A stretch of 64,000 nucleotides of DNA, taken from IMG/VR virus record IMGVR_UViG_3300035655_000051, positions 34,232 through 98,231 of that record; one strand, given 5' to 3'. The stretch is from a virus (Duplodnaviria; Heunggongvirae; Uroviricota; Caudoviricetes). Below, in pieces: positions 18,207-34,218 of this stretch; positions within the stretch are counted from its first letter, which is position 1, and each line of letters starts with the position of its first letter. The translations under genes and the position numbers were made by a program. The notes beneath the pieces are model-generated. The model searched no databases and had not been told where the DNA came from. It saw only the letters and a program-made list of their open reading frames with translations.

Positions 18207-20278
18207 TAAATCACCACTTTCAGAACTCGCTCAGTAGCCCCCTGCACCTTAACAATGAAGGAATCATGCTTCGTCTCAGAGAAGCCAACGCCAGACAGCT
18301 GGTCATCTACCGACTGAACTGCCATCTGAGAACCGAGAGCCTCAAATACTCGCTTATGCTGTAGCAGTTCTGCCTTCAGGAATTCGTTGTAGAAACCATT
18401 GGGCTTTTCAGGATTGATACAATCCTTGAGCATGAAGAAGTAGTGACGGTTGCCATTACCAGTCTGCTCATCCCAATAGTTCGGAGAGTACATGGCCACA
18501 GAAACAGGCACAAACTGATTGGAGTTCACACCCCAGATCTCGCGGGTGCTAGTAGAACTGGGCAGCAGCTCTTTGATAGAGAACTTGCCATCCTTCAGCG
18601 TGACTTTTGCCACGGCGACATCCTGACCCTGATGCAGTGGCTTATCATAGTTAAACGAGTAGATGTTGCCGTCGAATTCAATCTCGGCACGGAAACCAGT
18701 TTTACCACCACGACTAGCAAAACATCTCACATAGAAGCTGTACTCGCCTTCCTTCATCTTTTTGATATCAGGCCATGTAATATTTTCGACCGCAGCTTTA
18801 CCCTGATTAGGACGAGTGATATCCACATCCAAGCGGCCATTAGTACGAGGATTCCAACAGTTGCCGAAGTAGATGTGATTCTTATCGGGTTCAATGCAAT
18901 GAGCATCCTCATCATTTGCATCGTACTCACCCGGCACATCGTTCCACTGAATCGAGAAACGCAGCACACCGTCCACTTTACCGCCAGCAGCCTTAACGTT
19001 TTCGCGAATATCACTGTCTGTCATATTACCGGTATACGCCCAACTGAAACCATTAGGCCACTTGAACATACTCGGCGCATTCTTATCCTGCGGAGCAATC
19101 AGAGACATCATATTCTTCTCGAAACGATTCTCCATGAATAGTTCCAGCCCAGTCGCAGTCGGCAACACATTTTTGATGAACTTGTCAATGCTGATTTCCT
19201 CTGCACGGTTAAACTTCTTGGGATCAATCGCAACAGTCTTAGCCATTGCCTCAAACGGATTTGTAGCACCAGCAATACGAGGAGCGGCATCACGGTTGCA
19301 GAACAGGATATTGTTTGCGGTGATATCGTCCAGAGTAGCAAACCGACGACCCAGACTGTTCATATAACCCAGCTCGGTGACAGTCTTCTGTGCATCTTCC
19401 AACATCTTCTTGGTGAAAATCGCCTTGGGACGCTTATAGTTTGCGGGAGCGACAACCTTCTCAAAAGCAGTCACAGCGGAATCCACATCCATGCCTTCGC
19501 TCAGATTGATAAGAAGGGCGCCGATAGCGGTGTTACGAATACGAAGCTGCGCCGCCGTAGCATATGTAGGAGCAAGCCATACAAAGGCAAGCTTTTCATT
19601 AACAGACAGCTTGTCATAATCAATCTTATCGTGCTTAAACTCCTTTACAGACCGCTCAAACTCCTTGCCGCGATACAGACTATTCTGAGCAATCAGCTCT
19701 AGCACAGTATCAACAGCCTCCATGGTTAGCTCTTCCAGAGAACGCTTAAACACGTTTGCGGAGTCACGCCACTGTGCCATCTTGGTAGCTACGTCATCTC
19801 CACTGGTAATAAAACGCTGCGGAATCTTTACTGCGAAATGATCCCAAGTATGTACATCCTTGTGGTTTTCATCGTACTCGTAGTTCATCTCGGTGCCGAA
19901 CATGTCCCCAGAACCGATCATATTGCGACTGACAAAGTACGGATTCACAATGGCGCGGCTCTTTACATAGGCGGCCAGTGCATCAACAACAGGCTGATAT
20001 TTGGCAGACTTTGCATCGAAATCCCAGATGGAAATCAAATTATAATTCTTGTCAAACGCCACCAACTTGCCGATATTCTTTACAAAACGGCGGCAGCAGG
20101 AACAATCGTACTCGCGCCGCTTACGGAACAGCTCATTCGTGCCAGCCGGGAAGCTGTCAAGATACAGATTGTACAGTTCATCCTCGTCAGCGTCAGTGAC
20201 AAACAGGGGATTCTCACTCTTCACCATCTCATTGAAGTGGTCCTGCAGCAGCGCACGAAATTTCTTGAAATCAGACAT
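18206..20278 (-). CDS. large hypothetical protein (690 aa)
   Basis: Uninterrupted protein-like ORF; no motif recognised by eye. Confidence 0.7.
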   Translation of the reverse strand: MSDFKKFRALLQDHFNEMVKSENPLFVTDADEDELYNLYLDSFPAGTNELFRKRREYDCSCCRRFVKNIGKLVAFDKNYNLISIWDFDAKSAKYQPVVDALAAYVKSRAIVNPYFVSRNMIGSGDMFGTEMNYEYDENHKDVHTWDHFAVKIPQRFITSGDDVATKMAQWRDSANVFKRSLEELTMEAVDTVLELIAQNSLYRGKEFERSVKEFKHDKIDYDKLSVNEKLAFVWLAPTYATAAQLRIRNTAIGALLINLSEGMDVDSAVTAFEKVVAPANYKRPKAIFTKKMLEDAQKTVTELGYMNSLGRRFATLDDITANNILFCNRDAAPRIAGATNPFEAMAKTVAIDPKKFNRAEEISIDKFIKNVLPTATGLELFMENRFEKNMMSLIAPQDKNAPSMFKWPNGFSWAYTGNMTDSDIRENVKAAGGKVDGVLRFSIQWNDVPGEYDANDEDAHCIEPDKNHIYFGNCWNPRTNGRLDVDITRPNQGKAAVENITWPDIKKMKEGEYSFYVRCFASRGGKTGFRAEIEFDGNIYSFNYDKPLHQGQDVAVAKVTLKDGKFSIKELLPSSTSTREIWGVNSNQFVPVSVAMYSPNYWDEQTGNGNRHYFFMLKDCINPEKPNGFYNEFLKAELLQHKRVFEALGSQMAVQSVDDQLSGVGFSETKHDSFIVKVQGATERVLKVVI

Positions 20279-20558: not shown

Positions 20559-20816
20559 TCACAACAATGATTTGCAGCAAAGCGGTTTAGCCGGCTCAAG
20601 CATTTCATCACTCCATGACCAAAGACCGAATCCTTCTAAAACATATGTAATGTAGCAATGTGAAACCGTTGTAATCTTACCAGCGTAACTACACATAGCA
20701 CTATTAACTCCGGGACTAAATCCCCATCTTGTTCCACTTACCATTTTGTAACTTCCGGACTCATGAAGATCTGGGCGGACTCTAACTTTGTCGCCGGGTT
20801 TATACTTGTATTCCAT
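20559..20816 (-). CDS. CKSLL-tail family member 2 (ends ...PAKPLCCKSLL)
   Basis: N-terminus MEYKYKPGDKVRVRPDL... and conserved tail. Confidence 0.65.
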   Translation of the reverse strand: MEYKYKPGDKVRVRPDLHESGSYKMVSGTRWGFSPGVNSAMCSYAGKITTVSHCYITYVLEGFGLWSWSDEMLEPAKPLCCKSLL

Positions 20817-20825: not shown

Positions 20826-21110
20826 TCACAACAAACTTTTGCAAATCAAGTTCTTTGGACGATCAAACATTTCATCTGTGTAATAATATGTTTTTCCATC
20901 CTCAAGAATTTTGTATCGACCGTTTGCCTTGTGAGAAATATGTACAATTTGTCCACGATAACCTACTTGCCCACGTCCACTCCATGACGTCTCAATGCCA
21001 TTGGCATCCGGTTCTGGACCAGATCTCATGTAATAAACTGTTCCAGATTGAAGATCTTCCCTGACGCGAATTGCTTCTCCATTTTTATATTTGTATTTGC
21101 TTTTCGACAC
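20826..21110 (-). CDS. CKSLL-tail family member 3 (ends ...RPKNLICKSLL)
   Basis: N-terminus KYKYKNGEAIRVREDL... and conserved tail. Confidence 0.65.
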   Translation of the reverse strand: MSKSKYKYKNGEAIRVREDLQSGTVYYMRSGPEPDANGIETSWSGRGQVGYRGQIVHISHKANGRYKILEDGKTYYYTDEMFDRPKNLICKSLL

Positions 21111-21126: not shown

Positions 21127-21399
21127 TCATAATAGACTTTTACATGTAAACGGTTTTTTAGATTCTTCGAACATTTCATCTGTCCAATATCTGGAGCTTT
21201 CTTTTACCCTGTAACACATTACATTCCCACAACAATCATAACTCTCGATTGTTACTTGTTTCCCTCGAAGATTTTCCATAGAATGAATAGCAATAATGTC
21301 ATCATATGGAGTTTCTCCTGACAACATCTTGTATATTTTACGATCTGATAAATCTTTTCTAACCGTCACTTTATCTCCGGGTTTAAACTTATAGTTCAT
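21127..21399 (-). CDS. CKSLL-tail family member 4 (ends ...SKKPFTCKSLL)
   Basis: N-terminus MNYKFKPGDKVTVRKDL..., YWTDEMF, and conserved tail. Confidence 0.65.
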   Translation of the reverse strand: MNYKFKPGDKVTVRKDLSDRKIYKMLSGETPYDDIIAIHSMENLRGKQVTIESYDCCGNVMCYRVKESSRYWTDEMFEESKKPFTCKSLL

Positions 21400-21402: not shown

Positions 21403-22218
21403 TTATTCTCCTTCAAACCAGTCGGAAACATTCTCAGCGACTTCATCAAGTTTTTCCTGATCCATTTTGATATATCTCATCGTAATACGTTGGTCGCTGT
21501 GATTAAATTTTGTTTGAAGAATATTCAAGATGTTCGCTCCATCAACTGTACCCTCGGCGCTTTGTAATGCTGCCATAGCATAAGTTTTACGCATACTATG
21601 AGTGGATAGCTCAATGTCCAAACCGCACGCCTTACCAGCTTTCTTCAAAAGGTTGCTCACCGATCTAACGTTAAGCTGTCCACCTTTCTTGCTCTGAAAA
21701 AGAAGCGTGTCACGGTCAATTCGAAAACTAATTGCCTGATAATATTCTCTTAAAGCTTCTTTTGCCATATGAGAAATTTTACACACGTTTCGCTTGCCGG
21801 TCTTCTGCTCGATCAGCTCAACATGATCTTTTACATGAGCGTTCTCATAATAAACATCAGCCGTTTTAAGCTTCAACAAATCGCCGCATCGAACACCAAT
21901 TGAACAGCCGAGAATAAACATCGTTTTGTTTCTAAGCGCGATTTCTTCAGATCCGTTAGACCCAAGGTACTCAACAATCTTCTTGAAATCTTCCTTTGAC
22001 TTGATAGGATCTGCCGGGGTTGGCTTTCTGCGCCCATCCTTGAGATAAAGACTATCCGTCCGACGAGGTTTCCGTGCTTTTTTCGTTGCAGTGGCACTTT
22101 TAACTGCCTGCTGAATAATTCGTTCAATATCGTCCTCTGTAACGACGAGTTTTGCAGGCCGATCTTCAACTGGGAAAAGAATGGTTTTTTGTGCCACTTT
22201 CTTTGCGGTTTCTGCCAT
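21403..22218 (-). CDS. tyrosine site-specific recombinase (phage integrase family)
   Basis: C-terminal catalytic region ...ELSTHSMRKTYAMAA...MRYIKMD has the R...HxxR...Y arrangement; 271 aa. Confidence 0.75.
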   Translation of the reverse strand: MAETAKKVAQKTILFPVEDRPAKLVVTEDDIERIIQQAVKSATATKKARKPRRTDSLYLKDGRRKPTPADPIKSKEDFKKIVEYLGSNGSEEIALRNKTMFILGCSIGVRCGDLLKLKTADVYYENAHVKDHVELIEQKTGKRNVCKISHMAKEALREYYQAISFRIDRDTLLFQSKKGGQLNVRSVSNLLKKAGKACGLDIELSTHSMRKTYAMAALQSAEGTVDGANILNILQTKFNHSDQRITMRYIKMDQEKLDEVAENVSDWFEGE

Positions 22219-22232
22219 TAAAATTCACTCCT

Positions 22233-22496
22233 TTACAAAAGACTTTTACATGTAAGTGGTTTTGGAGACTCGAACATCGTGTCAGTCCAATAATGGCTAT
22301 CCTCACAGAGCGTATAAACACCGCAGATTTGGCATTCGATTGTCATAAGTTGACCACGGTGTCTTTCCATATCTTTATTAACTCCCGGATCGCAGCCATA
22401 ACTTTCTCCGCTTTGCATTGGATATTCTGCGCCGGCTGTCAAGTCTTTCCGAATTCTTACTTTTTGTCCAATTTTATATTTGTAATCCATAATCAA
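22233..22496 (-). CDS. CKSLL-tail family member 5 (ends ...SPKPLTCKSLL)
   Basis: N-terminus DYKYKIGQKVRIRKDL..., HYWTDTMF, and conserved tail. Confidence 0.65.
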   Translation of the reverse strand: MIMDYKYKIGQKVRIRKDLTAGAEYPMQSGESYGCDPGVNKDMERHRGQLMTIECQICGVYTLCEDSHYWTDTMFESPKPLTCKSLL

Positions 22497-22771
22497 TCTC
22501 TTTTCTAAATTGTGAGTAACAGTTTGGCTGGAAGAACATTTGCGAGATAATTTGGAGGGATCTTTGATCCCGGAAGCATTGTCGAGTAAATGTTCTGATG
22601 GCCAATGAGTCGCAGTGATTGCAGCCGCGATCTCCAGCTCTGCTGGGATTAGGCTGCAGAACGGAGACTCCGCACTTGCGAACTAATTTGATCCATAGCT
22701 CAGGAGGGCGAGGCTGCCAACCTCAGGCAGCCCATGGAGCCCGTATGAGCGTGCTATGGTATTCTTCATAA

Positions 22772-22788
22772 CCGTCGGTCATCCGGCA
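22772..22788 (+). repeat. hairpin motif copy B (CGTCGGTCATCCGGCAG)
   Basis: 7-bp stem CUGUCGG/CCGGCAG with a 4-nt loop on the plus strand. Three copies in the window (22772, 24638, 36978). Confidence 0.5.
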
Positions 22789-22836
22789 GCTCGCGACGTA
22801 AAACGCCCGATATTCAAAAGAGATTACAATATATAA

Positions 22837-23175
22837 TTACTTGGATTCTTTGTCCTGTTTTCGCAGTTCATCAACAAGACATTCCAAACAGCTCTGTAGA
22901 GCGTCGTGTCCGGCCTCAAGCATTGCCTGATGAATATTCACTTCAAAATCACACAAGAGATCTGCACATAAGCTCATATCCTCTGCATCGATTTCTTTGA
23001 TGCCAAGCTCCTTGATTGCGCTTGCAACGTCGGAAGGCCCCCAATAGACCATTGCTCTGTGGTCGTCGATATCCAACAGGTCAACTGGACACCCGATGGA
23101 TTCCTCTACGACACTTGCCGCTTGATCGAGCAATTCAACTGGAGTGCCGCCATCTCTACACATCATTTCAATCAT
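22837..23175 (-). CDS. small acidic protein co-transcribed with the RT (112 aa)
   Basis: Its start overlaps the RT stop (ATGA); acidic and Cys-containing; no motif recognised. Confidence 0.5.
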   Translation of the reverse strand: MIEMMCRDGGTPVELLDQAASVVEESIGCPVDLLDIDDHRAMVYWGPSDVASAIKELGIKEIDAEDMSLCADLLCDFEVNIHQAMLEAGHDALQSCLECLVDELRKQDKESK

Positions 23176-24410
23176 TAGAAAACAACTCCTTCTTTTGGTT
23201 TTAAGTCAGCTTTGAGCATTGCCATCATATCAACATGATACTTTTCGTTGTACCGAGAAATCACCGTGTCGACCGATTCTTTTTCTACCATACGGTAGTA
23301 ATTCAGCCTGCCATTAAACTGCTGCAGGTCTTCAAGATCCCACGTTTTTCCTTCTTTCTTGCAGACGATGTAATTAGATGCCATCTTCTTAAAGTCCTTA
23401 AAATTGCGCCATCCGACTGTGATATCGTTATTGGCATTCCACATCAGACCGAGCATCCAGTTTTCGCTCGAATGCCGATTACCATAATGCGTTTTTTCTT
23501 CATTCAAAGTAAACGGAGCATTGATTGCATCCAACATCTCTTTGATGATATCCTGCATTTCCATCGGGTCAAAACTCAAATAGCAGCTGATGGTGATATC
23601 GTCTGCATATCTGGTGTATGTAAAAGTGCGAGAAATGCCGTCTTTCATGGTATATTTGTAAGAAAGCTTCTTATTTAACATATAATCAAACGGGATCATC
23701 ATAACGTTCGTGATCCACGGACTGATTGGCGTTCCCTGCGGAAGACCGCCGTTCAAGAAGCACAGGCGCATCGCTTTAGTCAGCTGGTTGTATCCATTTC
23801 GATCCTTCATAATGAGAGAAAACGGATAAATCTTGCTGAACATGCCGTAGATAAACTCAGGAGTGGAGCTCGGGAAGAATCCATGAAAGTCAAACTTGAC
23901 AGCCCAGTTGTTTTCATAGGTGACGATCTTTTCTTTCCCAGTCTCACGATCTTTTACTGTATATCTGTGTCCCGCCTGATGCTTTTTAATTGCACTCAGA
24001 GTGCCGCGCCCATTGATATATGCGTGTGCTGCCGTGTGATAATCAGCAATCATGAAACTTTTTAACAGCGTCCGCAACTCAACCAACGCATCGCTCAGTT
24101 CATTGTTCGGTGCATCAATTGGACGAACGCCACCAGTCTTCTTAGGAATTTCGAAGTGATAGTAATGCGTCGACAGGTCACGTACCGCTTCAAGACGGGC
24201 GTATTTCTGATTGAATTCCGTAAGCCGTGTAATCATATTGGTAACGTTTGTAATGGCTACGAGACGATCATTCAACCCATTACGCTGTACAGTTCGAGTA
24301 GAAGTTTCATCGCCAGCATATTTTAACTGGTTCACGTCAACGACTCCGCTAAGGATTTCATCAAACGTAATCTGCCTTGTTCTCGGCGGATTCCAATAAG
24401 TAACGTACAT
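23175..24410 (-). CDS. reverse transcriptase (retron/group-II-like, YADD type)
   Basis: RT motifs FEIPKKTGGVRPIDAP (1/2), LPQGTPISP (4), TYTRYADDITIS (5), FTLNEEKTHYG (6/7). 411 aa, no endonuclease domain. Confidence 0.85.
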   Translation of the reverse strand: MYVTYWNPPRTRQITFDEILSGVVDVNQLKYAGDETSTRTVQRNGLNDRLVAITNVTNMITRLTEFNQKYARLEAVRDLSTHYYHFEIPKKTGGVRPIDAPNNELSDALVELRTLLKSFMIADYHTAAHAYINGRGTLSAIKKHQAGHRYTVKDRETGKEKIVTYENNWAVKFDFHGFFPSSTPEFIYGMFSKIYPFSLIMKDRNGYNQLTKAMRLCFLNGGLPQGTPISPWITNVMMIPFDYMLNKKLSYKYTMKDGISRTFTYTRYADDITISCYLSFDPMEMQDIIKEMLDAINAPFTLNEEKTHYGNRHSSENWMLGLMWNANNDITVGWRNFKDFKKMASNYIVCKKEGKTWDLEDLQQFNGRLNYYRMVEKESVDTVISRYNEKYHVDMMAMLKADLKPKEGVVF

Positions 24411-24435
24411 ATGTTTACCTCTTCTAAATCGTGAT

Positions 24436-24679
24436 CTAAATGGTGGTTTGTATGCTCAGGGAGGTGCCTTCGACGGGACGTCTTCCTGCGAGTTTGCGTT
24501 TTGAGCTCATTTCCGGTACGTGTCTACGTTGATTATTTTGATCGACGAATCAGCATACCTGCAGAGTCGACGTACGCCGCATGCGATCACACGCCTCGGT
24601 TTTCCGGTGGGATGTGTATGATCTTACCTTTACGAACCTGTCGGTCATCCGGCAGGACTGTATATTTCAACAGTAATTC
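24436..24679 (-). ncRNA. candidate retron-like msr/msd non-coding RNA upstream of the RT
   Basis: About 245 nt of non-coding DNA bounded by a 9-nt inverted repeat (ATCACGATT at 24680-24688 and AATCGTGAT at 24427-24435). The second repeat sits just before the RT RBS, as a1/a2 repeats do in retrons. Contains palindromes around gcatgcggcgtacgtcgac. Confidence 0.3.
24638..24655 (+). repeat. hairpin motif copy A (CTGTCGGTCATCCGGCAG)
   Basis: Same 18-nt hairpin as at 22772 and 36978. Copies A and C share about 100 nt of extended similarity. Confidence 0.5.
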
Positions 24680-24702
24680 ATCACGATTTTTTTATTTATT
24701 CT

Positions 24703-25377
24703 TTATGCAGCCGTAACGTTAAAAGTGTACGGATTTGCAACGATCATTTTCTTCAAAGGTGCGATATTGGTCGCGAAATTGATAAAGTTCGTAACCGCCA
24801 AACAACACACGAAACGAACAGTCGGGGCGAGACCTTGAACGATGCCACATGCAGAAACCGGAGTGCCAGCCTGCGCATCTTCATGAGAGAAGTTCATAGA
24901 ATTCCATAAATTCTCTCGGTCTTTTTCCTTGCTCCAATCCGCTGCCCAGCACTGTGCATCATGGAATCCAGTGCGGACATCAAACACGCCCTTGATGTTC
25001 GGGTTGTACTTGTTCGCTTCCATGAACTGCTTGCGAATTTCGATGTTGTCGACCGCGAGGAACACATAACCGCGAATCATCTCGCCCTGCCAACCATTCG
25101 GCTTCAGAACGATTTCATCTTTGGCATCAGGATTGATGGCACAGATAATATCGCGAACCGCCTCGACTTTTGGAGCTTCAATATTGTTGGCGAAGAACAT
25201 CTGGTTGACGATATTCTTGCTTTCAACCTCGTCCATATCCCACAGCGTGAAATTCTTCAGACCATACCGTGCGAGAAGTTCCGCCACGGTAGAGCCAACC
25301 GAACCACAACCAATAATGTGGATCTGGCCGCTGATATCATCGGGGTTGAATACCATTTCAAGCTTACTCAGATTCAT
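24703..25377 (-). CDS. E1-like (ThiF/MoeB-family) ubiquitin-activating-type enzyme
   Basis: IHIIGCGSVGSTVAELLARYG (GxGxxG Rossmann), DMDEVESKNIVNQ and KVEAVRDIICAINP match the ThiF/E1 adenylation-domain pattern. Confidence 0.75.
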   Translation of the reverse strand: MNLSKLEMVFNPDDISGQIHIIGCGSVGSTVAELLARYGLKNFTLWDMDEVESKNIVNQMFFANNIEAPKVEAVRDIICAINPDAKDEIVLKPNGWQGEMIRGYVFLAVDNIEIRKQFMEANKYNPNIKGVFDVRTGFHDAQCWAADWSKEKDRENLWNSMNFSHEDAQAGTPVSACGIVQGLAPTVRFVCCLAVTNFINFATNIAPLKKMIVANPYTFNVTAA

Positions 25378-25392
25378 TTTGTAGTCCTTTCT

Positions 25393-26289
25393 TTAATTGT
25401 CATACGGAAAACAGCTGGAATTCCAGCACGTATCAAGATCTTCTGGATTCTCCTTGTAATAATTGACCAATGGATATCGAGTCTCAGACACTTCATTGAC
25501 TTTCGGAGCCGCTGCACCAGTTACCGTCTTGATTTGCGGCACTGGCGTTTGCGTGGCAACTGTTTGCGGGTACGTTTTTTGCGGCGTAACTGCTTTACCA
25601 TAGTAGGTGCCTGCTCCATAAGCTCCGTAATTTGCGACTGTGCTTGCGACATATACAGGGCGCTTTCGAACCGTTTTGTCTGCATCTTCGAGAAATCGAG
25701 TCGAGTCAAAATCTCCAACAGTAACCTTGACATCGGCTCCCTCATAGATGACATTGTCGGCCAGATCAATGACGCGAACATTGTACTGCCGCTTCTTGTT
25801 CCAGATCATAAAAATCTGATAACTCGTCGGCTTGAGTCCGTCAATGAATCGCCACTGATCCTCCATATCGCGGCTGCTCGGCGTTACACCGAAATCGACA
25901 TGGCTGTGTCCCTGAAATCTCAGGTTGCGAATCGTTTCAACAGGCAGCGCCTGAAACCACTTTGAAAATTCTTCCTGATCGGTGTCTACGGTGGTGCCAG
26001 TTACAGTCTGAGGATACAGCAGAATTTTGGTAATCTGAAAATGCGTCTTATCGATACGATTCACGATGCCGCGCCATGCAACCTCACAATCGAAGTGATC
26101 AATCAACGCAAACATCTGAGAATACGCTTCATAGGTGAAATTCACCTCGACAGCATCCTTCTTAACAGACGCAAAATTCTTCTTGTATGAGAAAGAATCC
26201 GTCTTAACCCTACCGGTCTTATACAGCTCCTGAACAAATTCACGTGCCATATCTGCTACAACCTGCTCCGTGATATTAATGGGTTTCAT
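25393..26289 (-). CDS. JAB/JAMM (MPN+) metalloprotease-domain protein
   Basis: QGHSHVDFGVTPSSRDMED matches the JAMM motif HxH-x7-S-xx-D; 298 aa with a Thr/Pro/Gln-rich C-terminal half. Confidence 0.65.
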   Translation of the reverse strand: MKPINITEQVVADMAREFVQELYKTGRVKTDSFSYKKNFASVKKDAVEVNFTYEAYSQMFALIDHFDCEVAWRGIVNRIDKTHFQITKILLYPQTVTGTTVDTDQEEFSKWFQALPVETIRNLRFQGHSHVDFGVTPSSRDMEDQWRFIDGLKPTSYQIFMIWNKKRQYNVRVIDLADNVIYEGADVKVTVGDFDSTRFLEDADKTVRKRPVYVASTVANYGAYGAGTYYGKAVTPQKTYPQTVATQTPVPQIKTVTGAAAPKVNEVSETRYPLVNYYKENPEDLDTCWNSSCFPYDN

Positions 26290-27793
26290 CTTCAGCGACC
26301 TCCTTCTTTACTGCTTCTGCTGGTGCTGCTGCGTCCTTTTCGTTCTTGAGAATGTCAAACACTTCTGCCACCGTGTACAGATTACCCGCGTTATCCTCGA
26401 TACACTTGCGAGTTTTGATATAGGATTCGTCAAACAAATCATACATGAGATCGCTTACAACGGTGCCATCCTTCCAGTTGATGGATGCGCTTGAACCAAT
26501 AATCGTAGTCAGGACGCCAATGTAATCGTGTTTTACACTAAGCGCATTGAGCATCTCTCGATAACCGCTATAGCACGCATGCCGATCGATATGAGGCTGA
26601 CGAATACGATCCTTCATCAAATCAGAGCGACCTTGCATATCAGAACCACGAACTGCTTCAACCTTGCAGCTGGAATACAGTCGCCATTCACAGTAGGTGC
26701 GAATAGCGAACCGATGTGTCTTCCAAATTGACACAAAGAAATCTTTCGTAAGTTCCGTGTCATACGGCGAACGCTGAAAAATGTAGCTTCGACTATTTGC
26801 CTTTTTCTCAACACAAGTGCGGAACTCGCCCTCATCACAATCGTTCAGCGTGCCAACATAACCAATAGAGATTCGATCACTGTTGGAGTCAAGATAAACC
26901 AGCGTCTTGCAGCGCTTCAGGAAATTAACAATTGCAGCTTCGTCATCCTCAGTGCAGCAAGCACGGTCCATGATCATAGTGAGTTTAAATTGAGCTTCTT
27001 CAAGACTTTTATTTCTCTCACGGATATCGTTATATTTACTTTCAATATCATCTTGAATACTACGAATGTATCGTTCCTGCCGAGAAATTTCGTTGGCGTA
27101 ATCCTTCTTGCAAAATCCCTTCAGAGCACCACGCAACTTCTTACCATAGAAATCGCCGGTCTCGTATGCCTTCTCCATGTATTTGCCGAAAGCTTTGTTG
27201 TCCTGATCATAAAGAGTACGCAGCATCGCCTTCTCATCATCAGTCAGCGGCTGATCAGCGAAAAACCACGGCATCAGGTTTGGCAAACAACTCGCTGCCA
27301 TGTGCATGGCCTGAATCAGATTCTTCTTAGCACAAACAACGACAACACCCTGCTTCTTTTCATTCTGATATACATAGACATTGCCATTCTTATCGATGTA
27401 CTTAGCTGCGACATCCATGATCTTCCAACCGGCAGCTTCGTAATCCGCATTGTACTTCTTGAACTCAGAAATAATGGCGTCTGCTTTCTTATCGTCGATC
27501 GTCTGAAACATGATGCCAAATTTCATCTGATTGAAAGCGTTATCTTCATGAACGAACATGTCCTTAGTGAACTTTTCGTCGTCGCCCATATAGAAATGTT
27601 GGCAATCAATAATTGACTGAATGCGATGTCCTCCCGAAATAGAATGCTTGATACGGTCATCATTGATCAGTACGCGCAGTACGGACAACATCACATTATC
27701 GTTGAGATTGCTATTGTCGCAATTCAGAATCAACGGATATGCTTCGTCGCAATCTCTCGAACCGATCTTGCTGGAATAAGCTGTGAAAGCCAT
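26276..27793 (-). CDS. large hypothetical protein (505 aa) in the E1/JAB operon
   Basis: Protein-like ORF overlapping the JAB gene start; function unknown (could be an E2-like or target component). Confidence 0.6.
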   Translation of the reverse strand: MAFTAYSSKIGSRDCDEAYPLILNCDNSNLNDNVMLSVLRVLINDDRIKHSISGGHRIQSIIDCQHFYMGDDEKFTKDMFVHEDNAFNQMKFGIMFQTIDDKKADAIISEFKKYNADYEAAGWKIMDVAAKYIDKNGNVYVYQNEKKQGVVVVCAKKNLIQAMHMAASCLPNLMPWFFADQPLTDDEKAMLRTLYDQDNKAFGKYMEKAYETGDFYGKKLRGALKGFCKKDYANEISRQERYIRSIQDDIESKYNDIRERNKSLEEAQFKLTMIMDRACCTEDDEAAIVNFLKRCKTLVYLDSNSDRISIGYVGTLNDCDEGEFRTCVEKKANSRSYIFQRSPYDTELTKDFFVSIWKTHRFAIRTYCEWRLYSSCKVEAVRGSDMQGRSDLMKDRIRQPHIDRHACYSGYREMLNALSVKHDYIGVLTTIIGSSASINWKDGTVVSDLMYDLFDESYIKTRKCIEDNAGNLYTVAEVFDILKNEKDAAAPAEAVKKEVAEDETH

Positions 27794-27936
27794 ATGTATT
27801 TCCTCCTATTTAATTTCAAAGCCCAGATACTGGACACATATAAGGCAGACTTTAACCGGCCTGCCAGCGGCTGCAGTGTTTAGAATATCGTTGTAACCAA
27901 TAACGAATTCAGCGGTTTATTTTCAAATTAGTGCGA

Positions 27937-28176
27937 TTAGTTCATACCAGTCGCATTGTCGTGCTTGGAGATGGAGGCCAGATACACCTCATCGCCGACG
28001 CCCAGCTCAGACAGCGGAGTGTTCAGCTGTGCCACCGTCAGAATGCAGCCATCCAGAGTGCTCTGGCCATTGGCGTAGTTCACGCCATGCTTTGCGAACA
28101 CGTCCTTCGGGGTCATGCTGGTAGCAACAACGTCCTCGATCTTGTCGTCATTAGTGGTAACCCAAATCTTAATCAT
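27937..28176 (-). CDS. small protein (79 aa), candidate beta-grasp/ubiquitin-like component
   Basis: MIKIWVTT... small protein at the head of the E1/JAB operon; ends ...NATGMN. Ubl assignment is speculative. Confidence 0.4.
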   Translation of the reverse strand: MIKIWVTTNDDKIEDVVATSMTPKDVFAKHGVNYANGQSTLDGCILTVAQLNTPLSELGVGDEVYLASISKHDNATGMN

Positions 28177-28273
28177 AGTATGTACTCCTTTTTAATTTGA
28201 AAAATATCGTTTACTCGTTAAAATGCCGGACGTATTGCGCAGGAACATCCGGCGTGGAACCTCGGCGGCGCTC

Positions 28274-28696
28274 TTACTCGGCGTCTGCGTCCTCACCATC
28301 GATAGTGATTGCAGCATTCATGGCAGCCTCATCAGCGTTGATGGACTCCATAGCGGCTGCGATCTGCTCCTCGATCTTGGTGCCGCGAACAATGGTCAGA
28401 CCAATCATGTCGCGAACCCACTCCTTGATCTCTGCCTCAGACTTCATGCCAGCAGGAACAGGACGGCTCAAAACGGCAACCTTATCGCCAGTGACTGCAT
28501 CCTGAGCAAAAGCCACGCCGAACTTGCTGATATCATCCTTAGAAGCAACAGCAATGGCGCTCACAAGCTTCTTCTCCTTGCCCTCGCCCTCATACAGCTT
28601 CAAAGCCTCGGGACGGAACTTCTCGACCTTCTTCAGGGTAGCGACATCGTATGCGGAAGTGACGAACAGGTTGTTGAACTTAACGATTGCTTTCAT
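28274..28696 (-). CDS. hypothetical protein (140 aa), probably highly expressed
   Basis: Start moved to the ATG after RBS AAAGGAGAAAAC (MKAIVKF...); acidic C-terminus. Confidence 0.55.
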   Translation of the reverse strand: MKAIVKFNNLFVTSAYDVATLKKVEKFRPEALKLYEGEGKEKKLVSAIAVASKDDISKFGVAFAQDAVTGDKVAVLSRPVPAGMKSEAEIKEWVRDMIGLTIVRGTKIEEQIAAAMESINADEAAMNAAITIDGEDADAE

Positions 28697-28741
28697 AATG
28701 TTTTCTCCTTTGTAATTAAAGATTGATATGTAAACGGGCAA

Positions 28742-28873
28742 TCACCCGTTGTACCTTATGCGGTTTGCAGTAGCTCCTTCATATCATCCAGAGCTTCATC
28801 CCATGTATCGGCCGACTGAATAAACTGACCACTATCCGCCGATACGATTTCATAGTGGCCGTCAACATACTTG
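28742..28873 (-). CDS. micro-ORF (43 aa, MVIKYVDGHYEIVSAD...)
   Basis: Below the ORF-track threshold, but preceded by RBS AAAGGAG and by copy 3 of the conserved promoter-like motif. Confidence 0.4.
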
Positions 28874-28895
28874 ATAACCATTTCTTCACTCCTTT

Positions 28896-28921
28896 ATATA
28901 TTTAAGTTATGTTTGTATGGT
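28896..28921 (-). promoter_or_regulatory. conserved promoter-like motif, copy 3 (CCATACAAACATAACTTAAATATATA)
   Basis: About 23 nt upstream of the micro-ORF ATG. Confidence 0.4.
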
Positions 28922-28933
28922 CAAAAAATAAAA

Positions 28934-29158
28934 TCACAGAAGTGATTTGCAGGTAAGTTTTACTGGACACGGCTCCCAAAATCTTTGCGGGCACCAAGTA
29001 ATCGTTGTTTCTCCACTTGTAAATGGGTCTAACATCTCTACAACTGGGTAAGCTCCATCAAATCTTACGATGCGCCCTCTTTTGTTGCGATTCACATCGT
29101 TTTCAGACACTTCATTGCCGATTCTAACTAATTGCCCAACATGTAAATCGTATTTCAT
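28934..29158 (-). CDS. CKSLL-tail family member 6 (ends ...CPVKLTCKSLL)
   Basis: Start taken at MKYDLHVGQLVRIGNE (ATGA overlap with the upstream gene); conserved tail. Confidence 0.6.
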   Translation of the reverse strand: MKYDLHVGQLVRIGNEVSENDVNRNKRGRIVRFDGAYPVVEMLDPFTSGETTITWCPQRFWEPCPVKLTCKSLL

Positions 29159-29412
29159 ACAACTGTCTCCTCTGTAATTGTCCATGTGTGACGATAACCA
29201 GCAGGAACGTCTGCAACACGCGCTCCCCAATCGTCAATATAGCTATCTCGCATACTTTCTGAATCATTTACGTCGTGTTCGTTCAAACACTCTAAGAACA
29301 AATCCTGCATCCTATCTGCCGCGTCTGCATGATTCGCATAAACGTGTTCAACACAAGCGAACGCCCATTCGTAAGAATTTTCGACACAGTCATGAAGAAC
29401 ATAAACCTTCAT
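29155..29412 (-). CDS. hypothetical protein (85 aa)
   Basis: Start at MKVYVLHD...; the long ORF-track version 29155..29679 overlaps a neighbour. Confidence 0.45.
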   Translation of the reverse strand: MKVYVLHDCVENSYEWAFACVEHVYANHADAADRMQDLFLECLNEHDVNDSESMRDSYIDDWGARVADVPAGYRHTWTITEETVV

Positions 29413-29428
29413 ACTGTCACCCCCCCAA

Positions 29429-29695
29429 TCAAAGCATTTCACAAAACTCGCCAAGCTTGATCCACAACCAATATGTAGACTGATCCATCCGAACAACATC
29501 AGGAACACCGCGAATAAGCGCCCACTCATGCGCCATCTTAAACAATCTTGCACACGCTGCTTGTTCCTGTTTGGTAAACTGTTCGTTCCAGAGCCTACGG
29601 CGAGTGCCACTGTTCCAACGAGCGCCTTCCCGAGTTTCGCAAACAAACATAAACGGAATTGTCTCGAGAACCTCCTCATGTGACATGGTGATCAT
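29429..29695 (-). CDS. hypothetical protein (88 aa)
   Basis: Protein-like ORF. Confidence 0.5.
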   Translation of the reverse strand: MITMSHEEVLETIPFMFVCETREGARWNSGTRRRLWNEQFTKQEQAACARLFKMAHEWALIRGVPDVVRMDQSTYWLWIKLGEFCEML

Positions 29696-30378: not shown

Positions 30379-30464
30379 TGGTGCGCCCGGCGGGACTTGA
30401 ACCCGCACGCCATCTCTGGCAGAAGATCTTAAGTCTCCTGTGTCTGCGATTCCACCACGGGCGC
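30379..30464 (-). tRNA. tRNA-Leu (anticodon TAA), type II
   Basis: Acceptor GCGCCCG/CGGGCGC + A + CCA, anticodon loop CTTAAGA, long variable arm, T-arm GCGGGTTCAAGTCCCGC. Confidence 0.8.
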
Positions 30465-30772
30465 ATATAAAAGAAAATCAGAAACAGCCAACATTCGTTT
30501 TACGTTCCAGTTTACTGGCTACCTGAAGGGTATTCGTCCGACAGCTACTCGGCTTGCACCTTATTCCCCTTCCTATTTGGCTCAGTATCATTTACCGGTG
30601 TGATACCTGTCGTTTGCCAATGAACGGCCAATCCCCGATCTAGCTGGAACAACTGATTTTCTATTCCTCATTTAGTTAGAGACCTAATGAGTAAAGATGT
30701 CTACCTACACCGGTTGTGGACGGACTTACCCGGCTGGATTTCTATGTAGGAGTCTCAAACCGTCGCACACAA

Positions 30773-30847
30773 TGGAGCAGCGAATGGGAGTCGAACCCAC
30801 GCCATCGACTTGGAAGGACGATGTACTAGCCGTTATACGACCGCTGC
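30773..30847 (-). tRNA. tRNA (probable Gly, anticodon TCC; one anticodon-stem mismatch)
   Basis: Acceptor GCAGCGG/TCGCTGC + CCA, T-arm GTGGG-TTCGACT-CCCAT, anticodon loop CTTCCAA. Confidence 0.55.
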
Positions 30848-30966
30848 ATATAAACCCGGCTTACTAAGCCTTATTGCCACAGCATACGCCATGGAGCCGG
30901 GAATAACAAGGAAGAAAAGAGGTAAAGCCCGAATAGGAGGAATGAGACCCTATAAGCGGGCATCGG

Positions 30967-31035
30967 AGTGACTGGTTGGACTTGAACCAACGGCGCGCAG
31001 TTAGCTTGCTGCTCTACCATCTGAGCTACAGTCAC
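30967..31035 (-). tRNA. atypical short tRNA-like gene (68 nt, anticodon arm and variable loop about 4 nt too short)
   Basis: Perfect acceptor GTGACTG/CAGTCAC, canonical D-arm GCTCAGATGGTAGAGC and T-arm GTTGG-TTCAAGT-CCAAC. Only 19 nt remain for the anticodon arm plus variable loop, with a possible GCAG/CTGC stem and 8-nt loop. Confidence 0.4.
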
Positions 31036-31188
31036 ATAAAATACTCGGCTTACAAAGGTCAACTGCACTCTTTCAAGTGAGCCGAGAATAATTGACGAAG
31101 AAGTATAAAAATGAACTCCCCCTTTCGGGGTGGTATCTCGCACAGGCGCGGCCGGATCTGACCGCTAAAGATCCTACCCATACGAGAT

Positions 31189-31275
31189 TGGTGCTCACAA
31201 GAAGACTCGAACTTCCACGTCATAAAAGACAAGGGACCCTAAAACCCTCGCGGCTGCCAGTTTCGCCATGTGAGC
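31189..31275 (-). tRNA. tRNA-Leu (anticodon TAG), type II
   Basis: Acceptor GCTCACA/TGTGAGC + A + CCA, D-arm GGCGAAACTGGCAGCCGC, anticodon loop TTTAGGG, long variable arm, T-arm TGGAAGTTCGAGTCTTCT. Confidence 0.6.
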
Positions 31276-31412
31276 ATATCAAGAGCAGGGTTGCGTACCT
31301 GCTACGACTTGTTCAGTCACGGTTGTCTTATGTTTGGAGGGACACGAAAACAACTAATCCGATATAAAGGAGAAATATGAGAATACGAGGGACGCAATGA
31401 CCAAACGCCCCA

Positions 31413-31498
31413 TGGTGCAGCTAGTCGGATTTGAACCGACACGGATTTTCACCAGCAGATTTTGAGTCTGCCGCGCCTGCCTATTACGCCATAGCTGC
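31413..31498 (-). tRNA. tRNA-Leu (anticodon CAA), type II
   Basis: Acceptor GCAGCTA/TAGCTGC + A + CCA, anticodon stem GCAGA/TCTGC with loop CTCAAAA, long variable arm, T-arm CGGTTCAAATCCG. Confidence 0.8.
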
Positions 31499-31537
31499 AT
31501 ATTGCTCGTCTTTCCGAGCCGCCACTGCTTGCGCAGG

Positions 31538-32449
31538 TTACTTCATATCGTTCAGTACAGGGATGCTGGCATCACCGCCGACATAAGTAGGAAGCTTACC
31601 ATCCCACTTTTCATACATCTGCTGCTGAATCAGCCGGTCGCTCAGAGACTCAGAGATGATTTTATTCGCCTCGGCTTCTGCGTTCGCCTTGGAAATCTTG
31701 GTCTGGTTCTCAATCTCCTGCGCCTCGTCATTGCGCTCGGCCACAAAGGACTTGTTAATAGCAGCCTGAACAGATGCATCGTCGTACTCAATGCCATCCT
31801 TCATGCCAAGGACAGTAATCGTGATACCGCGCTCTGCAAAATACTCAGTCACATCCTTGCGTACATACTCCATGATCTCGGCCTTCTTCTCAAGGATCTC
31901 ATTCATGGTGTACTTAGCGCACATTTCAACAAAGTCAGCTTCAACACGAGCACGGATTTCAGTATCCATAATCTCGGAGAGCTGCTTGTTGTTGTAGGAA
32001 TACAGGAACTTGACTGCATCATTTTCAGTATAGATCTGAGCAGAACAGTTCATACCGACGGAGAAGCCAATAGACTCCTTGCTTTCGGCAGAGATGGACT
32101 GGTTGATAGTGCTGGTGCCACTATCCTTGCCCTCGGACCATTCACGAGTAACAGGAGTTCTATTGACGACAACCAACATGTTATCCGGAACCCAAGTACC
32201 AATGATGTCAGTCGGCGACAGATGTCGCTTCGAGTAAGTAATGTACACCTGCTTGGCTGCAACCTTTGCCTCGGCGAGCATTTCCTCACTCTCAAAGGAC
32301 GCCTGTTTTCCCCCGCCCTCAGAGAGTGAAATCAGAAATGCAGTTTCATGAGGTTCGATTGTATACACCTCTTTCTTGGTGCATCCCGTAAATGTCAGCG
32401 CCATCACAATTGCACACGAAACCACGAAAATCTTTTTGAACTTCTTCAT
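31538..32449 (-). CDS. SPFH/band-7 (prohibitin-like) domain lipoprotein
   Basis: Signal peptide plus lipobox (LTFTGCT), then an SPFH-like core with a coiled-coil, Ala/Glu-rich C-terminal half. Confidence 0.6.
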   Translation of the reverse strand: MKKFKKIFVVSCAIVMALTFTGCTKKEVYTIEPHETAFLISLSEGGGKQASFESEEMLAEAKVAAKQVYITYSKRHLSPTDIIGTWVPDNMLVVVNRTPVTREWSEGKDSGTSTINQSISAESKESIGFSVGMNCSAQIYTENDAVKFLYSYNNKQLSEIMDTEIRARVEADFVEMCAKYTMNEILEKKAEIMEYVRKDVTEYFAERGITITVLGMKDGIEYDDASVQAAINKSFVAERNDEAQEIENQTKISKANAEAEANKIISESLSDRLIQQQMYEKWDGKLPTYVGGDASIPVLNDMK

Positions 32450-32461
32450 TCGTTCCTCCTT

Positions 32462-32686
32462 TTAATTTTTGAATAGAATATATACCACAGCTCCAATCGC
32501 AAGCGACAGAGCTACAGACACCGAAAGAGCCAATTCGCTGACACGTCCGTAAAGAGAACTTATACTTCCTGTTGCCATTTGAACAAGCGAGATGTGCCGT
32601 AGAAGTTTCTCAAAAATGTCATCGAGACTCAAAAACGAAACAGCCGATGCGCAGGCTGCCAGCAATAAATCTTTATGTTTTTTCAT
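32462..32686 (-). CDS. small membrane protein (74 aa)
   Basis: Two hydrophobic segments. Confidence 0.45.
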   Translation of the reverse strand: MKKHKDLLLAACASAVSFLSLDDIFEKLLRHISLVQMATGSISSLYGRVSELALSVSVALSLAIGAVVYILFKN

Positions 32687-32757
32687 AACTTACCACCTCA
32701 GAATCCTGTCTCAGCTTTTTGCCACAAATTGGGTCGTGATGACAAAACTCACACATT

Positions 32758-32943
32758 TTATTCGTCCTCGACTTCTTCGTCATCTACTACGTAAATCGCG
32801 TCAATTTCCTCATTGTCATCTGGGCTAATTTCTTCAGAATTATAAGCCTCTTCCGCAATCTCTTTTGCCTGTTCTTCAGACTCCGCTGGAACCCACATGG
32901 CATAAGACTGTCGTGTCCAAACGCTTACAAGGTATCGCTTCAT
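32758..32943 (-). CDS. small acidic protein (61 aa)
   Basis: Short ORF ending DDEEVEDE. Confidence 0.4.
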   Translation of the reverse strand: MKRYLVSVWTRQSYAMWVPAESEEQAKEIAEEAYNSEEISPDDNEEIDAIYVVDDEEVEDE

Positions 32944-32947
32944 GAAA

Positions 32948-33265
32948 TCACTCCTCTACCTTAAATACCATGTAGTACATGTGATTATCTTCACCGTTAT
33001 CAACCGCAGCTCCGATAGCATACTCGGGATACGGACACAAAGCACACCCACAGAAATCTGCATAAGAATCAGTGTTAATTCGCGTTGCGTTTTCATACCG
33101 TGCAGCTTCATCGCTTGGCATATTATCAAAGAAGCTCTGATAACTACGAGCAGCAAAATCAATCGCATCACTTCTCGACTGAAATGCTTTATCGAAACTT
33201 ACTGATTTGTAGATGTCAACTTTTTCGTTGGTATAATCGCTTACGACAATGTACATCTGAATCAC
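32948..33265 (-). CDS. hypothetical protein (105 aa)
   Basis: Protein-like ORF. Confidence 0.5.
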   Translation of the reverse strand: MIQMYIVVSDYTNEKVDIYKSVSFDKAFQSRSDAIDFAARSYQSFFDNMPSDEAARYENATRINTDSYADFCGCALCPYPEYAIGAAVDNGEDNHMYYMVFKVEE

Positions 33266-33933
33266 TCCTTCTCAAAGATATCAGTGTACTTGATGTACAG
33301 CTTACCGTTATGATAGTAGGTGTTGTATTCGCACTGGGTCACATACCACCAAGCCTTTTTATGCCCCGCCAGCAGGAGGTCGTGCAGATGATAAGTTTCT
33401 TTGTAGTTTTCATCTACATACTGCCGGAATGTAAGCTCGTCGATATCGTCGCTTTCTTGAACAATAGCTGAAATCTTGCTAACTTCGTATTCGTCCATAG
33501 AATCGTCCACAACGAATACCACTCGAACGATTTCTTTACCCCGGCGACAAATCTTGTAAAGCTCCTCTGCACAATGCAAATGATACACAACTCTATCAAA
33601 CTGTTCGAATGGAAACATTAAAATTCCATCATCATGATCAAAATCATAATAGCTCGTATGCAACTCAATCTTGCGACCAAGCTCTTTACACACCGAAAAG
33701 AATCCTGTCCACCACGCCTGATGTTCCCACCAGTGATAAAGTGGGTCACCGCCACCAGACACAGATACCCAATTGCAGTCATTACATTCGTTTTTCAGAA
33801 CATGCTCCAACTGCATATAAGAAGAATACTCGTCTGTCGGCGTCATCTTGAGCTTGTTATTGCGGACGATACACTCAGGGCAGCTGTAATGGCAACCAAA
33901 GTTCGTGATGATGCTGAGATATTTGTCATCCAT
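33262..33933 (-). CDS. radical SAM enzyme (small, activase/QueE-like)
   Basis: NFGCHYSCPECIVRNN gives the CxxxCxxC cluster-binding motif; SGGGDP glycine-rich SAM motif; 223 aa. Confidence 0.65.
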   Translation of the reverse strand: MDDKYLSIITNFGCHYSCPECIVRNNKLKMTPTDEYSSYMQLEHVLKNECNDCNWVSVSGGGDPLYHWWEHQAWWTGFFSVCKELGRKIELHTSYYDFDHDDGILMFPFEQFDRVVYHLHCAEELYKICRRGKEIVRVVFVVDDSMDEYEVSKISAIVQESDDIDELTFRQYVDENYKETYHLHDLLLAGHKKAWWYVTQCEYNTYYHNGKLYIKYTDIFEKE

Positions 33934-33939
33934 TTTGAT

Positions 33940-34194
33940 TTACTCCTTGTTAATGGTAAGCTGAATAGACCAATAATCTCTGTCGTTTCCAGTGTAAATC
34001 AAAGAGTCCAAAACTTCTGAGTGCCGATCGCACTCGTGATAGATTTCTGGACCATGGCTCTGAAGCCATCCAGACTCCACTCCGAACTTTTTAACGATTT
34101 CTCCTTCATCAATGACTGCGATGCCATCGGAAGCCTTATCTTTCGCTTCTTCAATCATCCATTCAACGATTTCTTTGATATTCAGATTTGCCAT
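33940..34194 (-). CDS. hypothetical protein (84 aa)
   Basis: Protein-like ORF. Confidence 0.5.
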   Translation of the reverse strand: MANLNIKEIVEWMIEEAKDKASDGIAVIDEGEIVKKFGVESGWLQSHGPEIYHECDRHSEVLDSLIYTGNDRDYWSIQLTINKE

Positions 34195-34218
34195 GATTCA
34201 TACCTTCTTTCAAAATGT

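Follow-up and report, generated by a model that had tools for sequence, protein, structure and literature searches.

The stretch of DNA described here (the window) comprises 64,000 nucleotides of a virus of the Caudoviricetes (IMG/VR record IMGVR_UViG_3300035655_000051, positions 34,232 to 98,231), and its minus strand carries a cassette in which the genes of a putative ubiquitin-like protein (Ubl) conjugation pathway are followed by a retron-like reverse transcriptase (RT) gene. Five protein genes, all open reading frames (ORFs) on the minus strand, form a string from 24703 to 28741. Read in the direction of transcription, the order is p155, p79, p505, JAB and ThiF, then a 292-nt gap (24411-24702) that holds a structured noncoding RNA (ncRNA), the RT gene and p112 (Table 1); the 3' end of p505 and the start of JAB overlap by 14 nt. 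The original prediction, made without database searches, had named four ORFs here, encoding an E1-like (ThiF) protein, a JAB/JAMM protein, a 505-aa protein and a 79-aa protein, as a possible Ubl conjugation or deconjugation module beside an RT element. All four are present as described, on the minus strand, and belong to the module; the fifth gene (p155), the ncRNA in the gap, the K-x-D-N-A end of the small protein and the membership of the RT had been overlooked.

Table 1. Cassette features and the second ncRNA copy in the window, in order of transcription for the cassette
Feature	Coordinates	Strand	Basis and remarks
p155, orphan, ~140 aa	28274-28696	-	ORF call starts with TTG at 28741; conserved start is ATG at 28696 (MKAIVKF...)
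p79, Ubl-like, probable beta-grasp precursor, 79 aa	27937-28176	-	Body to Ala75 (27952-28176); variable tail TGMN plus stop (27937-27951)
p505, 505 aa, three-part, C-terminal UBC/RWD-like domain	26276-27793	-	Predicted model plus invariant H401/C407
JAMM/MPN+ metallopeptidase (JAB), 298 aa	25393-26289	-	JAMM domain at residues ~45-206, then low-complexity C-terminal tail
ThiF/E1-like adenylating enzyme, 224 aa, small, single-domain	24703-25377	-	Pfam ThiF, E 7.4e-21
Retron-like ncRNA 1	24426-24689	-	a1/a2, hairpins SL1/SL2, covariance model
Retron-like RT, 411 aa	23175-24410	-	RVT_1, E 3e-13; YADD at residues 268-271
p112, acidic, 112 aa	22837-23175	-	Start overlaps RT stop
ncRNA copy 2, orphan	36700-37025	-	Covariance model match, 40.6 bits, E 6.5e-6

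Little of this cassette is visible to existing annotation. When all of its proteins were scanned against NCBIfam, Pfam, PHROGs and PADLOC, just ThiF and the RT were matched, plus a weak PADLOC JAB hit (E 0.0033), and four of the five module proteins have no match in Pfam, NCBIfam or PHROGs; p505, p79 and p155 returned nothing from any of the four libraries in these scans. A promoter and terminator scan was uninformative, with counts no higher than chance.

The adenylating enzyme is a clear member of the ThiF family (Pfam PF00899 at 74.8 bits against a cut-off of 28.1), and the E1 signature named in the original prediction was found in full (GCGSVGS, DMDEVESKNIVNQ and KVEAVRDIICAINP). It scores far under the cut-offs of ThiF, MoeB, PRTRC and all other curated NCBIfam subfamilies. 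Membership in PRTRC systems was rejected on a TIGR03736 score of 18.8 bits against a cut-off of 144.75, and the other cassette proteins match no PRTRC model (ThiF, A, B, C, E, F). Across 85 nonredundant homologues, the GCGxxG motif and residues D47, D49, N55, Q59, K70, D110, R115, R135 and C177 are invariant, while the canonical SNLxRQ motif departs to SKNIVNQ. Cys177, present in 85/85 sequences, sits at what we take to be the position of the crossover-region cysteines of ThiF (Cys184) and MoeB (Cys187).

The predicted JAMM motif (HSHVDFGVTPSSRD) was likewise recovered in the JAB protein, and its zinc site (E...HxHx7Sx2D) is intact, with E69, H128, S129, H130, S138 and D141 invariant in 108 to 109 of 109 sequences. 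The predicted structure has an MPN fold whose closest relatives are of the deubiquitinase type: structure comparison values were 14.4 for Pyrococcus JAMM1 (the SAMP2 peptidase), 14.4 for Rpn11, 14.0 for CSN5, 13.0 for Cap3, 12.8 for BilC, 10.5 for BubCD and 7.5 for RadC. By these values, the protein as modelled is a Ubl-type JAMM isopeptidase of a divergent subfamily. The window protein matches no curated Pfam or NCBIfam profile, and 6 of 32 relatives match Prok-JAB weakly (best E 0.011). Relatives are encoded on 224 viral-contig stretches, and a single one of 50,697 GenBank phage records has a homologue, which is unannotated. Residues 207-298 form a low-complexity tail that is predicted to be disordered (predicted local distance difference test score, or pLDDT, <50); this tail ends in a conserved N-S-S-C-x-P in the close clade, and distant clades have an acidic D-D-D-x-Y-G tail.

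The small protein p79 has the form of a Ubl precursor. Its C-terminal K-x-(D/E)-N-A is invariant among homologues from related loci, and all of the 21 diverse homologues compared share K71, D73, N74 and A75. Many homologues end exactly at the alanine, while others carry tails of up to four residues (R, TAA, LAA, VVM, TSK or, in the window, TGMN). Moreover, the ORF continues in frame into p155 in at least five lineages (L079, L080/81, L086, L113 and L127), representing at least five independent fusions, and the junction (...DNA followed by A-x-I-K...) parallels the start of standalone p155, (M)AKI.... This pattern, a constant end behind which come optional tails or a fusion partner, reads as that of a Ubl precursor matured by a peptidase, with the cleavage itself a prediction; as the junctions lie directly after DNA, the mature end of p79 would fall after the alanine. 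Such cleavage has a parallel in Bub systems, in which the JAB domain separates a fused Ubl and E2 by cutting directly behind the terminal Gly (PMC11601596).

Profile comparisons point in the same direction. Nine of the ten best matches of the p79 profile to PDB sequences are beta-grasp Ubls (ubiquilin, SAMP2, PF1061 and ThiS among them), each non-significant (E 0.16-1.8), and weak Pfam matches include DUF2604, SAMP2, TUG-UBL1, RA and ThiS. The C-terminal Gly or Gly-Gly through which Ubl modifiers are activated is replaced by Ala in this family. The original prediction had judged the Ubl assignment weak for want of a C-terminal Gly-Gly; that pair is indeed absent, but its absence should not have been counted as a weakness, as the family has a conserved terminal Ala and the substrates of Cap2 end in Gly or Ala, so that a terminal Ala serves as an E1/E2 substrate in Cap2-modified CD-NTases (PMC10449767). 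From its sequence, p79 is probably a beta-grasp Ubl, an assignment that we hold with moderate confidence.

The p155 gene occurs at essentially all loci, always adjoining the Ubl gene or fused to it. Near-invariant residues (numbered from the ATG start) are S14, K26, F63, G99 and E109, and no similarity was found in Pfam, PHROG, NCBIfam, PADLOC or PDB sequences, profile search included. Its constant association with the Ubl makes p155 a candidate substrate or adaptor of conjugation.

The large protein p505 probably supplies the E2-like activity. A word-based search returned just 13 relatives; an exhaustive profile search returned 1787 clusters at 50% identity, nearly all of 450-510 aa and none with a Pfam domain. 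The AlphaFold2 model (pLDDT 84) divides into an N-terminal alpha/beta domain (residues 1-225), a 45-residue helix (232-276) and a C-terminal alpha/beta domain (approximately 282-500; nucleotides 26294-26950). The elements of the last follow the order seen in E2 enzymes, with a helix, four strands (with a helical insertion), a QPHID loop, a cysteine six residues on, and further helices. Within the motif QPHIDRHAC, H401 (26591-26593) and C407 (26573-26575) are invariant in 114/114 nonredundant homologues down to approximately 20% identity and are the sole fully invariant residues of the protein, reproducing the HPN-type motif followed by a catalytic-type Cys that characterizes UBC/E2 domains.

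Several similarity searches were negative. Sequence profiles of E2 families in Pfam, NCBIfam, PHROG and PADLOC did not match p505, its own profile matched no PDB sequence, and a Foldseek search of the model against the PDB returned nothing at E <0.1. An hhalign comparison with approximate sequences of four human E2s was also not significant (probability 0.4%); its sole local alignment placed RIRQPHID of p505 over RIYHPNIN of the E2. On the strength of the model and the invariant pair, we consider p505 a probable E2-like protein with candidate catalytic residue Cys407, again with moderate confidence.

Downstream of this module, the RT is most similar to those of retrons. The models that it matches best are those of retron RTs (St85, 148 bits with a cut-off of 235; Ec67; PADLOC RT_II-A at 127 bits; RT_XII/XIII), compared with 59 bits for group II introns and at most 40 bits for defense-associated reverse transcriptases (DRTs), and YADD is invariant in 97 RT sequences. 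The ncRNA lies next to the RT gene, as in retrons, and consists of a1 (AAATCGTGAT, 24689-24680), a G at 24679, stem-loops SL1 and SL2, a CGNAAxGG motif, a U-poor variable region and a2 (ATCACGATTT, 24435-24426). Nearly all of 75 unique homologous gaps contain an a1/a2 repeat of 8-10 bp, with compensatory variants (TCGTGGT/ACCACGA, TCTGTAAT/ATTACAGA and ATCGAGAT/ATCTCGAT), and the G immediately 3' of a1 is of the kind used for priming.

The structure of this RNA is supported by covariation. Minimum free energy (MFE) folds of seven divergent copies recover a1/a2 and two hairpins in every case. In a 14-sequence alignment of SL1 and SL2, double compensatory changes occur at 13/15 pairs, 93.8% of hairpin cells are paired compared with 31-44% in slid controls, and the covariation score is 0.84 compared with at most 0.16 in controls; none of 500 shuffles reached the observed score or paired percentage. 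A covariance model recovers ncRNA 1 at 68 bits (E 6e-12). The variable region is U-poor (8-23%) and noncoding, and a role as a coding template in the manner of DRT2/neo was rejected because it has stops in all frames.

The ncRNA occurs a second time in the window, 12 kb away from the RT and upstream of a gene with a BRO-N domain (34975-36477). The covariance model matches it at 36962-37026, the element as a whole (bounds in Table 1 approximate) carries the a1/a2 pair ATCGAGAT/ATCTCGAT, and its a1 (CATCGAGAT) and a2 (ATCTCGATG) are compensatory relative to those of copy 1. The SL1/SL2 module is the same and the variable region different, and the MFE fold again recovers a1/a2, SL1 and SL2. A 74-aa ORF inside this copy (36738-36962) is probably spurious. 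Distant clades (L007, L008, L079, L085, L087 and others) have two or three extra copies of the ncRNA module per locus, mostly just downstream of the RT, which suggests arrays of alternative templates for one RT.

The Ubl module and the RT/ncRNA are strongly coupled. We sampled seven contigs found via protein identity, 79 viral loci and 47 loci in metagenome-assembled genomes (MAGs), the last mostly binned to Clostridia (Oscillospiraceae, Ruminococcus and Lachnospiraceae); as a whole, these loci are from gut phages of approximately 145 kb and from Clostridia MAG contigs, and the closest relatives of the window are IMG/VR viral contigs of approximately 75-150 kb. The order p155-Ubl-p505-JAB-ThiF-gap(ncRNA)-RT was present in every long contig examined (all seven protein-identity contigs, the 79 viral loci and most of the 47 MAG loci), and an RT was found at approximately 118 of the 122 loci with enough downstream sequence (~97%). 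This synteny is retained down to 35% identity, with the RT/ncRNA directly downstream across JAB identities of 31-100%, and spans unrelated flanking genes, namely an integrase and DUF8224 in the window's clade, isochorismatase, phosphoribosyltransferase (PRTase) and RtcB genes at L007, and ArdC and SNF2 at L008. The RT element that the original prediction had placed next to the module is thus real and adjacent, but the notion that it merely sits beside the module does not hold, as the RT and its retron-like ncRNA travel with it.

This coupling is nevertheless not universal. Four loci (L090, L092, L107 and L110) keep the Ubl module with no RT and no ncRNA within 5-6 kb; as both are missing together, the RT and ncRNA form one unit that is separable from the Ubl module. 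Distant cassettes also carry inserted ORFs, in the JAB-ThiF gap (212 aa) or the ThiF-ncRNA gap (approximately 300 aa), as at L008 (7774-8412), L114 (8565-9467) and L079-L086; the ORF inserted at L008 has no Pfam match. At the other end of the cassette, p112 is present in 72/87 viral loci and not in distant clades, and its conservation in the close phage clade alone makes it a possible lineage-specific accessory.

We compared the cassette with known conjugation systems. Bil systems (BilA-D, types I and II) likewise have a Ubl, an E2, a JAB/JAMM peptidase and an E1 as separate genes, encode no E3 and belong to a phage-conflict setting, and our cassette contains the same four kinds of gene. However, Bil is host encoded and this cassette phage encoded; the E1 here is a single 224-aa adenylation domain, while that of Bil is IAD-AAD-CYS (PMC11601596); the E2-like domain forms the end of a three-part protein of 505 aa; the Ubl terminates in Asp-Asn-Ala instead of Gly; and an obligate p155 and the link to an RT/ncRNA are added. 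Membership in Bil was rejected on E1 architecture and the absence of sequence homology, and the resemblance may be read as an analogy of function. Type II CBASS (cyclic oligonucleotide-based antiphage signaling system) shares the E1/E2/JAB trio, which there regulates an immune sensor by C-terminal conjugation, and the conjugated ends can be Ala (PMC10449767). Our cassette has no CD-NTase gene, keeps E1 and E2 on separate proteins where Cap2 fuses them (E2-E1), and includes a dedicated beta-grasp Ubl; the lack of a CD-NTase and of an E1-E2 fusion led us to reject membership. In Bub (6E/DUF6527) systems the Ubl can be an N-terminal fusion to the next pathway protein, from which JAB frees it after a conserved terminal residue (PMC11601596). 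No DUF6527 protease is present here, which led us to reject this assignment too; the p155 fusion partner is not recognizably an E2, and the invariant Cys residues of the E1 and the E2-like protein suggest thioester rather than oxyester chemistry. Against PADLOC defense-system models, the cassette gave no significant match other than to generic Cap2-type E1-E2 models.

With retrons, the cassette shares an RT whose best matches are retron RT models, an ncRNA just upstream of the RT that is closed by a1/a2 and has a G after a1 and msr-like hairpins, and conserved accessory genes alongside. It differs from them in an RT that scores under all family cut-offs and does not conserve the VTG motif, in several ncRNA copies with differing variable regions per RT, in an effector set of five genes, and in being found on large contigs of gut phages, most of them uncultivated. 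The paper that sets out 13 retron types (Mestre et al. 2020, PMC7736814) uses none of the terms ubiquitin, JAB, ThiF, adenylyl or MoeB in its text, so that no type is described there with such an effector. The literature that we searched contained no description of a retron joined to a ThiF, JAB or ubiquitin-like system, including among phage-encoded retrons. The cassette could be classed as a new retron type or a new family of Ubl systems, assembled from known kinds of parts and widespread in gut viromes.

With somewhat more confidence than doubt, we favor a model in which these genes encode a cascade for Ubl conjugation, carried by the phage and united with the retron-like RT and ncRNA in a single conserved cassette. 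The view of the original prediction that the E1 and JAB genes form such a module, with the large and small proteins as partners, is supported, the small one by its invariant C terminus, variable tails, in-frame fusions and the predominance of beta-grasp Ubls among its weak profile matches. According to this model, the JAMM peptidase would trim the Ubl precursor right after the invariant K-x-D-N-Ala, removing the short tail or, in fusions, freeing p155. The small ThiF-type E1 would then adenylate the exposed Ala75 carboxylate and probably accept the Ubl onto Cys177, from which it would be handed to Cys407 in the E2-like domain of p505. The final transfer would be to a nucleophile on a target, for which the best candidates are p155 (always beside the Ubl or fused to it) and proteins that belong to the host or to a competing phage, and the JAMM enzyme could also undo conjugation. 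The RT, for its part, would copy part of the a1/a2-closed ncRNA or ncRNAs into reverse-transcribed DNA (RT-DNA), and by analogy with other retrons the resulting ribonucleoprotein may sense or gate the conjugation module. The retron would then have this module as its effector or regulator, much as Cap2 and Cap3 regulate CBASS, with a role in phage-host or phage-phage conflict, for example in superinfection exclusion or counter-defense. What the analysis shows is the set of genes, their intact catalytic motifs, the predicted folds of the JAB and E2-like proteins, the structure of the ncRNA and the synteny, from which the chemistry of the cascade, the making of RT-DNA, the target and the role in biology are inferred.

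A role in conflict is suggested by carriage on a phage and by the neighborhood of tRNAs, NAD-salvage genes and small accessory genes; it appears likeliest to us because the cassette lies among the accessory and conflict genes of a gut phage of approximately 145 kb. The window is phage-like throughout, with PhoH, exonuclease, nicotinamide phosphoribosyltransferase (NAMPT) and NAD (nicotinamide adenine dinucleotide) synthetase-like PHROG families. The last two form an NAD-salvage pair on the minus strand (NAD synthetase-like, 12395-13159, PHROG E 6e-60; NAMPT, 13631-15109, E 3e-162), and pairs of this kind counter NAD-depleting defenses. Eleven tRNA genes on the minus strand form two clusters, one at 179-1764 and one at 30379-34916 (Phe, Asn, Arg, Gly and Thr, then Leu x3, Gly, Met and Pro), and a Band_7/SPFH-domain protein is encoded at 31538-32449.

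Other features of the window lie closer to the cassette or run across the whole stretch. A tyrosine recombinase gene (21403-22218, minus strand; Phage_integrase E 1.6e-17) is situated approximately 1 kb downstream of the RT and is found near the cassette in the close clade and not in distant clades. A 690-aa protein with several Cys-rich motifs (18206-20278, minus strand; phrog_1735) is also encoded beside the cassette in the close clade, and its orthologues at L003 and L006 carry PF26675 (DUF8224). GC skew and coding strand switch at approximately 50000-52000, most genes to the left of ~50 kb being encoded on the minus strand and most of those to the right on the plus strand; this switch is a boundary of divergent transcription or replication.

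Eleven small ORFs (73-170 aa) with differing N termini all end in Cys-Lys/Arg-Ser-Leu-Leu-stop. Six are on the minus strand (17934-18206, 20559-20816, 20826-21110, 21127-21399, 22233-22496 and 28934-29230) and five on the plus strand (53151-53663, 53660-54004, 54031-54294, 54742-55152 and 55168-55389), and close-clade phages contain approximately 420 ORFs ending in C-x-S-(L/I)-L. We rejected a DNA repeat or recombination site as the explanation: the sequences no longer resemble one another past the stop codon, and Ser is encoded by either TCA or AGT, which places the conservation at the peptide level. The shared C-terminal tag might act as a degron, direct packaging or secretion, or be a site of modification. 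In distant clades, ends of this type were not found up to 7 kb from the cassette, and we saw no link to the Ubl module.

Several observations weigh against the model of a single Ubl-retron cassette. The four loci that lack an RT show that the coupling is not obligatory, and nearly all sampled loci are from uncultivated sources. On the retron side, the RT is below every curated retron family cut-off, its canonical VTG motif reads MLG, several ncRNA copies per RT are atypical of retrons, and an Rfam search of 22000-29500 returned no family at E <=1 and no msr match. On the conjugation side, the database matches of p79 are individually non-significant, the protein ends in Ala rather than Gly, the precedent for a terminal Ala is limited to Cap2 substrates, and p155 has no recognizable fold or function.

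The Ubl module might instead be independent of the retron, a neighboring cargo in a phage accessory island that acts alone, either in counter-defense against conjugation of the Bil or CBASS type or by tagging host proteins. Such independence would account for the RT-less loci, for the extra genes that separate JAB from ThiF and ThiF from the RT in distant clades, for a terminator-like hairpin after ThiF at some loci (L087) and for the other conflict-type genes nearby (NAMPT and NAD synthetase-like), but it is hard to reconcile with an RT/ncRNA directly downstream in nearly all evaluable loci, across highly diverged JAB proteins and unrelated flanks, when no other feature of the neighborhood is as conserved. 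We regard it as an unlikely reading that still deserves attention. It is quite improbable, in our view, that ThiF and the beta-grasp protein form a sulfur-carrier (ThiS/MoaD/TtuB-like) or MccB-like peptide-nucleotide system whose substrate is a nucleic acid or a cofactor, perhaps what the RT produces. The E1 has the minimal size of MoeB/ThiF and its best NCBIfam matches, far under their cut-offs, are to these families, the weak matches of the Ubl include ThiS and SAMP, and an Asn adjoins its C terminus. Yet library scans of the cassette proteins revealed no rhodanese, cysteine desulfurase or sulfurtransferase domain, the terminus is Ala and not Gly-Gly, the fusion junctions put the mature end after Ala and not after Asn, and the conserved partners include an E2-like protein, in which a His/Cys pair is invariant, and a JAMM peptidase of the Ubl type.

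We give almost no credence to a third alternative, in which JAB and the Ubl would serve virion or tail assembly in the manner of lambda gpK-type JAB and Ubl-like tail assembly proteins. JAB and Ubl domains are known from phage tail modules (Iyer et al. 2006, PMC1779556), but our cassette sits by tRNAs, a recombinase, NAD-salvage genes and small accessory genes rather than structural genes, shows no NlpC/P60 or tail-protein fusion, possesses an E1 of its own together with an E2-like protein and an RT, and has a JAB protein whose nearest structures are deubiquitinase-type. Nothing was found in support of the virion-assembly modifier that the original prediction had offered as one possible role, and the two outcomes it had named as counting against a conjugation module, an E1 of the sulfur-carrier class with no E2 or Ubl partner and a JAB protein in a tail or peptidoglycan context, were not what we observed.

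Thus, the model of a Ubl conjugation cascade in one cassette with a retron-like RT and ncRNA remains the one that we prefer. A more speculative version, which we consider doubtful, would fuse the two halves mechanistically: the RT-DNA/RT complex might itself be a substrate or scaffold of conjugation, with the Ubl placed on the RT, on RT-DNA-bound p155 or on nucleic acid, or the integrity of the RT-DNA might gate the E1-E2 cascade. If true, the element would represent a retron of a new type, with the tagging of proteins in place of a toxin as its output, and phages would equip each RT with several ncRNA "sensors" that can be exchanged for one another.

Ubl conjugation (Bil, Bub and Cap2/3) and retrons are two active fields of phage defense that have so far been unconnected. 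The cassette ties a complete set of E1, E2-like, Ubl and JAMM proteins to a retron-like RT and ncRNA, and it is carried by viruses rather than by their hosts, as part of a large and essentially unannotated family. It raises the questions of what retrons may regulate other than toxins, how an Ala-ending Ubl would be activated, what role a giant E2-like protein would play and why one RT would serve several ncRNAs, and its RT and ncRNA offer a possible new scaffold for RT-DNA tools.

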